Shown: positions 33,269 through 42,123 of the stretch, piece by piece
How the letters are laid out: every line of letters starts with the position of its first letter
Numbering within the stretch: the first letter of the stretch is position 1
Origin: a virus
Lineage: Duplodnaviria; Heunggongvirae; Uroviricota; Caudoviricetes
Direction: 5' to 3' (one strand)
DNA length: 64,000 bases
IMG/VR virus record: IMGVR_UViG_2585427757_000006
Notes under the pieces: model-generated
The model's database searches: none
What the model saw: the letters and a program-made list of their open reading frames with translations, nothing else
What the model was told of the DNA's origin: nothing
Position numbers and translations under genes: made by a program

Positions 33269-33965
33269 TGAAGTGTCAACAAAAACTGGCCACCGAGTTA
33301 GAGTTTTTCCAGTATCGATTTTCCGATTCATTTGGGGGTAATCCACCGTTATATTCGTGCGGTCTTAGTGCGCTGTAATATCCAACGATATAGTCCGTTA
33401 TGGCGTGAGCTGCCTCGCTGAAGCTTACGTAACCCACCACCGGCATCCATTCGTTCTTCAGACTCCTGAAGAAGCGTTCCATTGGGCTGTTATCCCAGCA
33501 GTTTCCGCGCCGGCTCATACTCTGCCTGATCTGGTATCGCCACAATAACTGCCGGAACTGCCTGCTCGTATAATGACTGCCCTGATCGCTGTGGAACATC
33601 ACTCCGCCGGGCTTACCACGGGTTTCCCATGCCATTTCCAGCGATTTCATGGTGAGCCTGCTGTCCGGCGAGAACGACATGGCCCAGCCCACTGGTTTTC
33701 TTGCGAACAGGTCGAGAACAACGGCGAGGTACGCCCAGCGCTTACCCGTCCAGATATAGGTCACATCACCGCACCACACCTGATTTGGCTCGGTCACGGC
33801 GAACTGCCGTTCAAGGTAGTTAGGGATAGCAACATGTTCATGACCACCACGTTTATACCGGTGAGTCGGCTGCTGACAGCTGACCAGCCCCAGCTCCTTG
33901 GCAATTTGACGTCCTTTCAGGCCTGGTGACCCACCTAATAACTCTGAGACTGCCTTCAGCAAACC
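33269..33965 (-). mobile_element. IS3-family (IS911-like) 3' fragment
   Basis: Terminal repeat tgaagtgtcaacaaaaactggccaccgagttag at 33269-33301 resembles the IS911 IRR as recalled. Only the C-terminal part of orfB is present. Ends within ~12 nt of the hsdR stop. Confidence 0.8.
33276..33962 (-). pseudogene. Truncated IS3-family transposase orfB (DDE domain only)
   Basis: WCGDVTYIW...[10 protein letters not shown]...[13 protein letters not shown] gives the DDE triad context. No orfA, no frameshift site, no N-terminus. Confidence 0.8.
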
Positions 33966-33976
33966 ATCACTCCTTT

Positions 33977-36900
33977 CTACCTACCCACCATTCGTTGCAT
34001 ACTTTGCGTCCACGAGGCTTTAAATGCTGAATCTCCTGCGAACAACTTGTAGAGCTCAAGTTCATCTTTACGGCGTTGCAGCATGATTTCCTTGAGCATT
34101 TTTTCGAAGGCCAAATTTCGATTATGGGGATCTGGGTTGTTTTTGTATTTCGATTCGAAGTCAGGGTGATTGCGGATACTTTCAGCGATGTTCACGAACT
34201 TAACCTTTTGCTCTTCAGGTGTGGCACTCCAGCCCTGGAACCATCGCTCATTAAATGTGCGAATGATTTCATCCAGCGGGTCAGTTTCTTTTTCACCGCC
34301 ATGCACCCCACGTGGGTTCGGATTTTGAGGATCAAGCTCCGCTTCTTGGTCACTAAGTTTAATGCTGTGGTTAAGCTTCACACGTTGCAAACCGTATGAA
34401 CTCAGATCGACAGAATCGAGAAGCTCATCAATAGCATCAGCATCGGGATCTTCCACTTTCAATTTCGGTATTAAAAACTTCAGGAACCAAAACAGTTTTT
34501 CCCAGCTGACCATTTCATAAGGCATGATAGAAGCCATCTGCCCATAGATTTTAACGAACTGTTTGGCTTTAATCTTAAAGTCCACTTTAGCTTCAGCTTC
34601 AAGATCTAGTTCATGGTCAAACCGCGCTGCGGCAATATCAATGATTGGACTGAGTGTCTGGGCGTCTTCATTCTTGAAATAACGCGTCACAAAGTCTTCA
34701 ACTTCATACCACTCGTACACACCGACATCGTCCATTTCATCTTTCAACTCGTGCAGTACGTTTATATCTGTAGCTTGGGACAATGACGTTGCTGTATAGA
34801 AAGGATCGAATGCTGATTGAATATCTTCAACCGAGTTGAAAAAATCCAGGATAAACAAGTCTTCTGTTTTCTTCCCTAGCTTAGGTGCACTGCGATTGAG
34901 CCTAGATAGCGCCTGAACACACAAGACACTGGCGAGCTTCTTATCTACATACATGGCGCAAAGCTTAGGCTGGTCAAACCCAGTCAGATACTTGTTAGCA
35001 ACCACTAAAAGTCGATACTCATCGGTATCAAACATATCTTTGGTATCTGACTCGGCAAAACCATTAATATCTGCTTCGGTATATTCAATACCATCAACTT
35101 CTTTGGTTCCTGAGAAAGCAATGGCAACTTTAAACGGGTTTCCTTGCTCCTCAAGTATTCGCCTTATCGCTTTGTAGTATCGAATGGCCGCCTCAATATT
35201 TTGAGTGACCACCATTCCTTTACCTTTACCTTTGAGCTTTTTCGTATTCACGACATGCGGAACAAAATGCTCCAGCATAATCTCTGCCTTGATATCAATT
35301 GTTTGCTGGCTTCGTTCTACATAAGCTCTGAGTTTTTTCTGCGCCTTTTTGGTATCAAACTCAGGGTTATCAGCAATTGATTTCTCAATCTCATAATAAC
35401 TTTTGTACGTCGTATAATTTGCCAGCACATCCAAGATGAAGCCTTCTTCAATGGCTTGTTTCATCGAATACAAGTGAAACGGCTTGTAAGAGCCATCTTC
35501 TTGGCGTTGACCAAATTTCTCCAAAGTGCTGTTTTTTGGTGTCGCTGTAAATGCCAGGTACGACGCATTCCCGCGCATCTTACGCGATCTCATCGCCTGA
35601 AGGATTTTATCCTGAGCATCTTCTGCCTCTTCGACTTCAGACTTGCCCATCGCTCGGTTCATATTGTCATGCGCCGAACCAGACTGTGAGCTGTGTGCTT
35701 CATCGATGATCACTGCAAAGCGCTTGTCACTAAGATCGGCGATACCATCAATAATGAACGGGAATTTCTGAATCGTCGTTATAATAATCTTTTTGCCATT
35801 CTCCAGCGCCTGCTTAAGCTCAGAAGACTTATTCGCTGGGGCAATAATGTTCTTTACTTCAGAAAACTCTTTAATGTTATCCCGCAGCTGCTTGTCCAAT
35901 AGGCGTCTATCGGTGACCACAATCACAGAGTCAAACAACGGCTGCTCCAAGTTTTTCCCGCCTGCCACATCAGACGAAGCAGGATAGGTTTCAATTAGCT
36001 GATAAGCTGCCCAGGTAATCGAGTTAGACTTACCTGAACCGGCTGAGTGTTGAATTAAGTAAGTCTGACCGACACCGTGCTGGGCGGCATGGTCTACTAA
36101 TTTTCTCACCACATCCAATTGATGGTATCGAGGAAAGAACAGGGTTCGCTTGGGTAATGGATCTTTGCTTGACCCATCCAGACGCACAAAATGCTGAATA
36201 ATATTCGCCAAGCTGTCTTTAGTGAATACTTCTTGCCATAGGTATGCCGTTTTATGGCCAGATGGATTCGGCGGGTTGCCTTGTCCAAGATTGTGACCTT
36301 TATTGAACGGCAAGAAGAATGTACTGCTACCTGATAACTTGGTGGTCATATACACTTCGTCGGTATCGACCGCCATATGCACTAGGCAGCGGCCAAAGGT
36401 CAGCAATGGCTGAGTTGCATCCCGATCATCTCGATACTGCTTTTGGCCGTGATAACGTGCTGTTTGCCCGGTCCATGCGTTCTTCAACTCCAGCGTTATC
36501 AAGGGTATTCCGTTGATAAACAATACCATGTCGATTTCTTGTAGGGGATTTACCATGGAATAGCGCACTTGGCGAGTACAACTAAACACGTTATCTGCAA
36601 AGTTTTGCTTTACCTTCTCACTACTACTTGCCAAAGGGGCTGGATAGAGCAAATTGAAATGAGCATCGTCTACGCTTAGCCCTTTCTTAAGTAAATGAAG
36701 AATGCCATGCTTCTTAATCAGTCGGTCAAATCGTTCGAGTAACTTACGTTGCCAATCTGAGGGGTTGTTCTTTTGCAGTTTGGCCAACTCTACTTCTTGT
36801 GTCTTTTGCAGAAATTGCCAGAAAAAACGTTCATCAATGGCATATTGCATATTAAAGTCACTAGCAGCACCAATGAAGTATCCAGCACCCAGTGACTGCT

Positions 36901-36994
36901 GACTCAGCCCCTCTTTGAGCTCTTCAGTACTGATCCCAGCCAGACATTTCTCAATGGCCGACTCTAATGCTTGTTCATTGGTTTGACTGACCAT
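33977..36994 (-). CDS. hsdR: Type I restriction enzyme R subunit (1005 aa)
   Basis: SF2 helicase motifs HSAGSGKS (I), IIDEAHSSQ (II) and TATP (III). Operon with hsdM/hsdS. Confidence 0.92.
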
Positions 36995-41891: not shown

Positions 41892-42052
41892 TTTCTTTTC
41901 CTGTTCAGTGTTGGTTGCACCCCACAAAGTTGCTGCAACGGCTTCACTATAAATTTAAAATTCTGTTCTTTCTGTAACGCCTAAATGGCCTCTACATCGT
42001 TCGATTAACTTGTTCTACCCGGCGCTAGATTTAAGTTTATGACACCATAAAG

Positions 42053-42095
42053 TGAATCGCCACAGGTTTAATAGACTGAATCGCCACAGGTTTAA
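42053..42095 (+). repeat. Perfect 19-bp direct repeat, two copies, 24-bp period
   Basis: tgaatcgccacaggtttaa at 42053-42071 and 42077-42095. Confidence 0.9.
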
Positions 42096-42123
42096 CAGAC
42101 ACCTCAGAGTCATTTAAGATGAC

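Follow-up and report, generated by a model that had tools for sequence, protein, structure and literature searches.

A predicted Madara/MdgA-type nuclease gene embedded in a type I restriction operon carried by an SSU5-like phage-plasmid

The operon and its embedded gene

The DNA analysed here, referred to as the window, is a 64,000-nucleotide (nt) stretch of a Caudoviricetes genome (IMG/VR record IMGVR_UViG_2585427757_000006) that contains a type I restriction-modification (R-M) operon with an additional gene, coding for a 387-residue protein, between hsdS and hsdR. An earlier reading of the same DNA, hereafter the original prediction, had described the operon as cargo lying next to a truncated insertion sequence (IS) and had suggested that the product of the additional gene serves the type I system as a fourth subunit or as an accessory nuclease. 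The four open reading frames (ORFs), hsdM, hsdS, the 387-residue gene and hsdR, span 33977-41927 on the minus strand and are as tightly packed as the original prediction had stated: hsdM and hsdS have 1 nt in common at 39462 (TAATG), and the other two gaps measure 9 and 14 nt. This spacing suggests co-transcription, perhaps with translational coupling, and not a shared complex.

The identification as type I R-M is borne out by Pfam, PADLOC and NCBIfam. HsdM (39462-41891; 809 residues from an ATG start that is also the RefSeq start, while the ORF list extends to a TTG at 41927) contains HsdM_N (E = 1e-22) and N6_Mtase (E = 1e-58) domains and the S-adenosylmethionine-binding motif DPACGSGG. HsdS (38182-39462; 426 residues) matches Methylase_S in Pfam and, over its full length, Specificity_I in PADLOC. 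Its two target-recognition domains, at about 38953-39454 and 38288-38741, vary among relatives that are elsewhere 98-99% identical, and comparison with loci L001, L003, L005-L008 and those from integrative and conjugative elements (ICEs) resolves them as two variable blocks between conserved ones. The exact hsdS allele is present on 32 contigs. HsdR (33977-36994; 1005 residues, intact) matches HSDR_N, ResIII/DEAD, SWI2_SNF2 and T1R_D3-like families in Pfam and REase_I in PADLOC; it has a PD-(D/E)xK motif of its own (D155...E169-L-K171), a Walker A motif (GSGKS) and a superfamily 2 helicase, and carries one private substitution, S348N. Solved type I proteins are distant, the closest being the HsdR of EcoR124 at an E value of 1e-11 only. 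All three hsd genes are full-length and free of frameshifts. A classical type I enzyme has the composition M2S1R2 and methylates or cuts at the site specified by HsdS.

The gene between hsdS and hsdR (37009-38172, minus strand) belongs to the Madara/MdgA family, PDC-S11 in PADLOC. Residues 1-383 of its product align with positions 1-373 of the 375 in the PDC-S11 profile PDLC04913 (E = 1.4e-182), and PDC-S11 and PDC-S18 are its only PADLOC matches. The D..ExK motif that the original prediction had pointed out is present in DLLALDKDGNLVIIENK as D63...E77-x-K79. An exhaustive homologue search over representatives returned 5527 sequences at E ≤ 1e-3; an alignment of 75 of them shows no variation at E26, D63, K79, Q90 and Y94 and at least 90% conservation at E77 and D68. 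The nuclease fold is supported by a confident AlphaFold2 model (predicted local distance difference test score 94.5), for which NucS is the top structural match, and a profile search against the PDB aligns residues 62-95 with the NucS active-site stretch. The N-terminal half is thus a NucS-like PD-(D/E)xK fold with a conserved D...E-x-K, as in Madara and MdgA. It is followed at residues 238-372 by DUF4268 (PF14088; E = 1.2e-39), a family that the original prediction had named for checking. Fold searches relate this C-terminal domain to YbjN and to type III secretion system (T3SS) chaperones.

Because the best structural and sequence similarity is to NucS, the 387-residue protein might be a housekeeping mismatch-repair endonuclease of the NucS/EndoMS type that came to lie in the operon by chance. 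The NucS/EndoMS stretch VDVMGVDKDGNIVVLELK...Q...Y does align with D63/E77/K79/Q90/Y94. Nevertheless, the NCBIfam NucS profile scores only 23.4 bits against a cut-off of 216, and the match is limited to residues 15-102 and to profile positions 117-202 of 250. The N-terminal DNA-binding domain of NucS is absent and DUF4268 is found at the C-terminus instead; moreover, the gene rides on mobile elements, at identities of at least 98% across Vibrio, Alteromonas, Morganella and Escherichia. A housekeeping repair enzyme is therefore extremely improbable.

Boundaries, carrier and distribution of the cassette

The core of the cassette extends from 33884 to 42052. Downstream of hsdR, positions 33897-33976 (minus strand) comprise the post-hsdR spacer and the first 26 codons of the gene that follows hsdR in ICEs, where it encodes 361 residues, as judged by translated comparison with ICE locus L014. 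A three-way comparison of the window, the IS911 of phage Sf6 and L014 shows that a 13-nt overlap, CCAGCCCCAGCTC (33884-33896), joins this ICE-derived DNA to IS911 orfB; we read the overlap as a microhomology crossover. The adjoining IS911 stump (33269-33896, minus strand) consists of the right terminal repeat and the C-terminal two thirds of orfB, without orfA and without the left end. It is 98.3% identical to the Sf6 element over 33260-33896, matches rve in Pfam and covers positions 172-368 of the 369 in the NCBIfam transpos_IS3 profile. With only the right 628 bp left, compared with 1249 bp in Sf6, it has neither the two terminal inverted repeats nor the intact orfA and orfB of an active IS911.

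These junctions amend the original prediction in several respects. A truncated IS3-family orfB with its right end at 33269 had been described correctly, but the terminal repeat, taken to be intact, is one G short. The break point had been placed about 12 nt from the hsdR stop; IS911 homology ends at 33896 and ICE and chromosomal homology begins at 33884, so that the actual distance is 81-93 nt. The ORF at 33276-33962 only seemingly reaches hsdR: it is a chimera in which the first 26 codons of the ICE gene run in frame into IS911 OrfB. A group II intron (ltrA) interrupts the IS911 stump at 33754/33755 in several relatives, AP027746, CP075739, CP015915 and pLR-46_1 among them, and likewise in the IS911-like copies on chromosomes; the window copy is free of it.

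On the other side, the region upstream of hsdM (41892-42052, minus strand) holds the 113-nt brxR-hsdM spacer and the last 48 nt of a WYL/BrxR regulator gene, the remainder of which is missing. ICE homology stops at 42052, equivalent to position 6133 of L014 and lying within brxR (5212-6180). The core therefore ends there and not at 42100, where the original prediction had set the upper boundary. It is followed by a second IS remnant, a non-coding 84-nt left-end stump of an ISEhe3-like IS3-family element (42053-42136, plus strand). This stump matches at 97% the sequence that immediately precedes orfA of ISEhe3 in phage SfIV and stops just short of the orfA start site. Its first 24 nt are duplicated in tandem (42053-42076 and 42077-42100; two copies found where 0.05 would be expected). 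Comparison of the window with SSU5 and SfIV shows a 5-nt microhomology, AGGTG (42132-42136), between the stump and the SPFH gene of the backbone. In chromosomal copies of the cassette, a separate IS911-like element with a group II intron is inserted in the ISEhe3-like stump at 42122.

Scans for promoters and terminators, both around hsdM and in the DNA downstream of hsdR, gave nothing usable on the minus strand, and no sigma-70-like site was found on that strand in 41700-42700. As a guess, the operon could be transcribed by read-through from a backbone operon.

The flanks belong to an E. coli phage-plasmid of the SSU5 type, as indicated by both synteny and homology (84-88% identity to SSU5 and 99% to E. 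coli phage-plasmids such as pNT1F31-113kb). They contain repA and four small ORFs on one side and, on the other, an SPFH remnant and genes for a small membrane protein, a RecA-like protein and a 5'-3' exonuclease. SSU5 homology breaks off at 33269 and resumes at 42132, inside SSU5_062; the insert takes the place of 1471 bp of SSU5 that comprise most of SSU5_064, the whole NinX-like SSU5_063 and most of the SPFH gene SSU5_062. What is left of the SSU5_064 homologue is a 3' remnant at 33165-33268 (minus strand; 87.8% identity up to 33269, which corresponds to SSU5 locus position 4270 within SSU5_064 at 4166-4576), and the SPFH/band-7 gene survives as a 5' remnant of 63 codons at 42124-42315 (minus strand).

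A plasmid search with the two flanks joined as the query matched 791 records. The short SSU5-type three-gene locus is present in 243 of these, among them the S. Typhi plasmid pHCM2 and the Y. pestis plasmid pMT1, and only 27 plasmids carry the cassette. In CP099103.1 and pHNAH968, whose flanks are 99% identical to those of the window, the same slot holds a type III Mod/Res pair with an HKD-Snf2 protein and a DUF4391 protein. Since the cassette is not found at this position in all relatives, being absent from the slot in those of the SSU5, pHCM2 and pMT1 type, it is cargo, as had been predicted. The slot is variable, and repA lies about 2 kb away. A survey has already listed several defence systems, including R-M and PrrC, on SSU5-group elements of E. 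coli and Shigella (bioRxiv 10.1101/2025.09.12.675607).

The left backbone junction, after GAGTGTAGA, is shared to within 1 nt by the window (33269) and the relatives with the type III R-M, HKD-Snf2 and DUF4391 cargo (L004, position 2877, and L098). At this point L004 has six additional bases (TCACTG) that pHNAH968 lacks. An IS end or an obvious recombination site was sought at the junction common to CP099103 and pHNAH968, and none was found.

Two arguments from composition for a foreign origin of the cassette had to be discarded. The GC content of the core, 43.9%, had been thought low; it ranks at the 15th percentile among equally sized backbone windows, which span 41.9-49.2%, and is not distinctive. 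Backbone palindromes had been reported to be lacking. The cassette has 6 perfect palindromes of at least 10 nt where 5.1 are expected, hence no depletion, and the motifs repeated in the backbone are each local to one region (repA iterons at 30263-32000, another motif at 50.7-60.9 kb), so that their absence from the cassette is uninformative. Six copies of the 14-mer CCGCTGACAGCATA, probably iterons, flank repA on both sides (30264-31478, in the region 30263-32000). The motif AATGATTCCATACA occurs four to five times in 50708-60900, with a hairpin of 13-bp stem at 56738-56770, and may be the palindrome that the original prediction had in mind. The RecA-like recombinase gene (42610-43683) encodes 357 residues and no intein; pNT1F31, pLAO4 and E. 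fergusonii relatives have a 2340-nt version with a LAGLIDADG intein. Composition is unusual at 58001-59000 (GC fraction 0.296) and at 2001-3000 (GC skew +0.37, AT skew -0.34).

Copies of the 387-residue protein with at least 98% identity occur in E. coli, Salmonella, Citrobacter, Morganella, Providencia, Edwardsiella, Alteromonas, Marinomonas, Cellvibrio and many Vibrio species. Gene order in the ICE-type loci, which come from Alteromonas, V. cholerae and metagenomic contigs, is rumB/rumA-like, RNase_T, WYL/BrxR, hsdM-hsdS-DUF4268-hsdR, then further genes including a CBASS pair, and traI. The window is 93-96% identical in DNA to these loci over 33884-42052, and the matching ICE stretch takes in the last 48 nt of brxR at one end and the first 79 nt of the gene after hsdR at the other. 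Chromosomal copies in E. coli, found in 56 of 5426 complete genomes and always in IS-rich islands, are 98-99% identical over 33884-42122. The E. coli version appears to be a truncated, derived one, because it has lost brxR at one end, and the next ICE gene at the opposite end, to IS insertions. The plasmid pLR-46_1, which gives the best DNA match to the 387-residue gene, was considered as the source of the window and rejected, as the cassette there is cut by IS26.

HsdM motif IV in the window copy

The catalytic motif IV of HsdM reads TPPY in the window (T307; codon 40971-40973) instead of the expected NPP(Y/F/W). By comparison, the motif is NPPY or NPPF in all 43 relatives retrieved by tblastn and in all 14 other cluster members read. 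The cassette type is a member of type I, and this copy departs from it at a catalytic residue; the TPPY form of HsdM is the new point of the present analysis. Between the window and its nearest relative, hsdM has three base differences, all non-synonymous. The two changes private to the window, G115S and N307T, are likewise non-synonymous. The exact HsdM protein is on record as WP_032252475.1 in two assemblies. A sister contig, JNMR01000023.1 (L106; assembly GCA_000700445.1), is 99.98% identical over 20.4 kb and has the same TPPY change next to an intact hsdR, so that a read error can be dismissed as the origin of the change. The window and this contig differ at four positions, two of which sit 5 nt apart in hsdR (35952 and 35957; S348N and a synonymous change), where a small conversion tract or an assembly artefact is possible.

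In gamma-class methyltransferases, the Asn side chain of this motif hydrogen-bonds the target amino group (PMC3874165), and methylation by the TPPY protein is probably impaired. This raises the possibility that the type I half of the operon is dead or decaying in this copy, that the embedded nuclease is the only functional part, if any, and that unmodified competitors are not restricted. Such decay would be in keeping with the invariance of the Asn among relatives, the non-synonymous nature of both private hsdM changes, the loss of brxR together with its promoter, and the failure of the scans to find a promoter-like site. On the other hand, all three hsd genes are full-length without frameshifts, the TPPY allele persists in two assemblies beside an intact hsdR, and HsdM with Thr in place of Asn could retain residual activity. 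A dead methylase combined with a live HsdR should also be selected against unless restriction is alleviated. We regard a dead type I half as a genuine possibility, albeit not the likelier outcome. In a milder form, the type I arm may be weakened or inactive in this copy, given N307T and the missing BrxR regulator, with the embedded nuclease intact. The original prediction had envisaged an active system that restricts competing phages and plasmids; for this particular element that is uncertain, owing to the TPPY motif, the loss of brxR and the lack of a recognisable promoter in the scanned region.

The hsdS-hsdR slot and known systems

To place the embedded gene in context, 80 species-level loci with homologues of the 387-residue protein (53-99% identity) were examined. 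In 40 of them, hsdM lies upstream and hsdR downstream of the homologue on the same strand. Six more have one hsd partner; four of these run off the contig end, and in two the other gene was not found in position. No type I genes occur within 9 kb in 22 loci. The association of the DUF4268 gene with type I operons is thus recurrent, not obligatory. At about 15 loci, more genes lie between the DUF4268 gene and hsdR, among them RhuM/Fic, Fic, Schlafen-AlbA2, NERD-UvrD helicase and Abi_2 genes and GmrSD_N/GmrSD_C pairs.

The plasmid pLAO4, which shares the backbone and the IS911 junction of the window, has a TgvAB-like DUF262 pair (GmrSD/HEC-06-like) together with a new hsdR 5' end (L003, 5503-9499, compared with window 36860-38265). 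The pair and the new 5' end replace the 3' half of the DUF4268 gene, of which a 5' remnant of the first ~177 codons is left, and the type I genes are intact. On sequence grounds, we take pLAO4 as direct evidence that recombination exchanges the content of the embedded slot. On the chromosome of E. coli G749 (L100, 5757-13207), a diverged DUF4268 gene of 397 residues separates the hsdS and hsdR genes of another type I family, in a leuX-tRNA island that also codes for a phosphorothioate-dependent endonuclease and for one protein each with a TIR and a WYL domain. Diverged DUF4268 genes were also searched for an E. coli homologue next to BREX, and the two loci inspected proved to be embedded in type I operons.

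Two family members have been studied experimentally. Madara is the PDC-S11 protein of E. coli ECOR34, renamed in a preprint of September 2026; as a single cloned gene it restricts Tevenvirinae as well as wild-type T4, whose DNA contains glucosyl-hydroxymethylcytosine (ghmC), but not T4(C), and the D63A mutation abolishes defence (bioRxiv 10.64898/2026.09.05.749240). Like the 387-residue protein, it combines an N-terminal NucS-like PD-(D/E)xK domain containing D63 with a putative C-terminal modification reader. Madara is a single-gene defence against phages with ghmC, as is predicted for the window protein. The two differ in context, the ECOR34 gene adjoining BREX and the window gene lying inside a type I operon, and in the reading of the C-terminal domain, which the preprint calls EVE-like whereas our searches of the window protein returned YbjN/T3SS-chaperone-like folds. 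MdgA likewise suffices alone for defence; the purified protein degrades T4 DNA and acts much less on the unmodified DNA of T4-GT7, and E77A, introduced with a mutagenic primer that encodes VIV(E>A)NKLDD, is inactive (bioRxiv 10.1101/2025.02.28.640651). The catalytic E77 of MdgA lies in VIVENKLDD and that of the window protein, with the same number, in VIIENKLDD. MdgA was recovered from a metagenomic library. Because residue numbering, domain order and HMM family agree with Madara and MdgA, we infer that the 387-residue protein is an autonomous modification-dependent nuclease and not a type I subunit; family membership would further predict defence against phages with ghmC.

The role envisaged in the original prediction, that of a fourth subunit or an accessory nuclease that is translated along with HsdS and HsdR and is required for type I restriction or modifies it, would account for the position between hsdS and hsdR with gaps of 9 and 14 nt, for the 40 type I-embedded homologues among the 80 loci and for the presence of a homologue in the unrelated type I family of G749. 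We consider such a role very unlikely. The protein is a full-length PDC-S11 member and tested members of the family suffice as single genes; 22 of the 80 loci are without nearby type I genes, the ECOR34 member adjoins BREX, and HsdR has an intact nuclease motif of its own. The slot also takes unrelated genes such as GmrSD pairs, Fic and Abi_2, and in pLAO4 half of the gene is deleted while the type I genes are intact.

A bolder reading of the same slot is that the space between hsdS and hsdR is a dedicated, exchangeable dock for modification-dependent nucleases, where Madara and TgvAB types are swapped or stacked by way of the conserved hsd genes, so that the composite would spread as a unit among ICEs, islands and phage-plasmids. 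The docked nuclease would then have a functional tie to the type I enzyme, be it common control of expression, stoichiometry or tuning that depends on HsdM and HsdS. In a stronger version, the main reason why an operon with a mutated methylase, as in this copy, is kept would be that it serves the embedded nuclease as an expression scaffold. We give the dock, with its functional tie, a low chance of being right.

The explanation that we favour, and consider probable, is that of a composite defence cargo bounded by IS stumps, with two separate restriction arms, one of them an autonomous Madara/MdgA-type nuclease embedded in the operon of the other. The cargo sits in a variable slot of an SSU5-like phage-plasmid, joined to the backbone at the IS911 tip on one side and via the 5-nt microhomology on the other. 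The first arm would be a classical type I enzyme, methylating or cutting at the site specified by HsdS. The second would be the 387-residue protein as a self-sufficient modification-dependent (type IV-like) nuclease, whose NucS-like domain would cut DNA with D63/E77/K79 and whose DUF4268 domain is presumably the reader of hypermodified (glucosyl-hydroxymethyl) cytosine. In this way, T4-like phages that slip past the type I enzyme would be covered.

Several points weigh against this explanation. The agreement with the tested Madara and MdgA proteins is confined to HMM family, domain architecture and residue numbering, and the activities of the 387-residue protein and of the operon are deduced by analysis. 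Expression is likewise presumed, the search of the minus strand upstream of hsdM (41700-42700) having found no promoter-like site. The association with type I genes at 40 of 80 loci is strong, and some functional coupling is conceivable. Finally, in the case of TgvAB of Vibrio cholerae, protection is 10-100 fold better from the whole operon than from the genes alone (PMC11411939).

Our analysis offers a name and a likely job for a gene that hundreds of records from Enterobacterales and Vibrio list simply as 'DUF4268 domain-containing protein': it probably codes for a type IV-like nuclease against T4-like phages that evade type I restriction. A ready-made two-arm restriction operon moves among SXT/R391-type ICEs, E. 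coli islands and SSU5-like phage-plasmids, with its regulator trimmed by IS elements, and the slot near repA of SSU5-like phage-plasmids is an exchange point for defence cargo. The HsdM N307T allele calls for caution in typing and phage therapy, as an R-M operon that looks intact need not be active.

Type I operons in which a second defence gene is embedded are already known from TgvAB, prr and rlo; the window system belongs to this kind. The prr locus, in which EcoprrI is combined with PrrC, has the gene order M-S-X-R, as does the window (hsdM-hsdS-X-hsdR). PrrC is a tRNA-Lys anticodon nuclease with an ABC-ATPase-like domain that is latent under the type I enzyme and acts by abortive infection. 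An older example of a defence gene embedded in a type I operon is the Campylobacter rlo locus.

By analogy with PrrC, the 387-residue protein could be a guard, a nuclease held latent in the type I complex that fires, with indiscriminate DNA cleavage and abortive infection, when a phage anti-restriction protein disables the type I enzyme. Apart from the shared gene order, PrrC-type systems are found on SSU5-group phage-plasmids (10.1101/2025.09.12.675607), and the Madara preprint leaves open 'a non-specific abortive response' (10.64898/2026.09.05.749240). We think a guard of this kind quite unlikely. Neither an ABC-ATPase-like N-terminal domain nor a C-terminal anticodon nuclease was found in Pfam, NCBIfam and PADLOC scans, the last of which gave PDC-S11 and PDC-S18 only; MdgA degrades T4 DNA directly in vitro and spares the unmodified DNA of T4-GT7 (10.1101/2025.02.28.640651); and both Madara and MdgA act without any type I partner.

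The ICE-type loci with the four-gene operon match the layout of hotspot 5 in SXT/R391 ICEs, where a WYL-domain gene always lies next to traI (bioRxiv 10.1101/2020.12.16.423150): in these loci the operon follows a WYL/BrxR gene and precedes traI. The phage-plasmid copy differs from the hotspot-5 copies in that the regulator and the neighbouring ICE genes, including CBASS, have been cut away by IS elements.

In its internal organisation, the window operon may be compared with TgvAB, whose type IV-like genes are located between hsdS and hsdR, protect against Tevenvirinae independently of HsdR nuclease activity and were proposed to complement the type I arm (PMC11411939). In both cases a modification-dependent function, predicted in the window, is coded between hsdS and hsdR of a type I operon. 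However, TgvAB is a pair of DUF262 proteins that are both required, one of them carrying a DUF1524 His-Me nuclease, whereas the window has a single NucS-like PD-(D/E)xK/DUF4268 protein.

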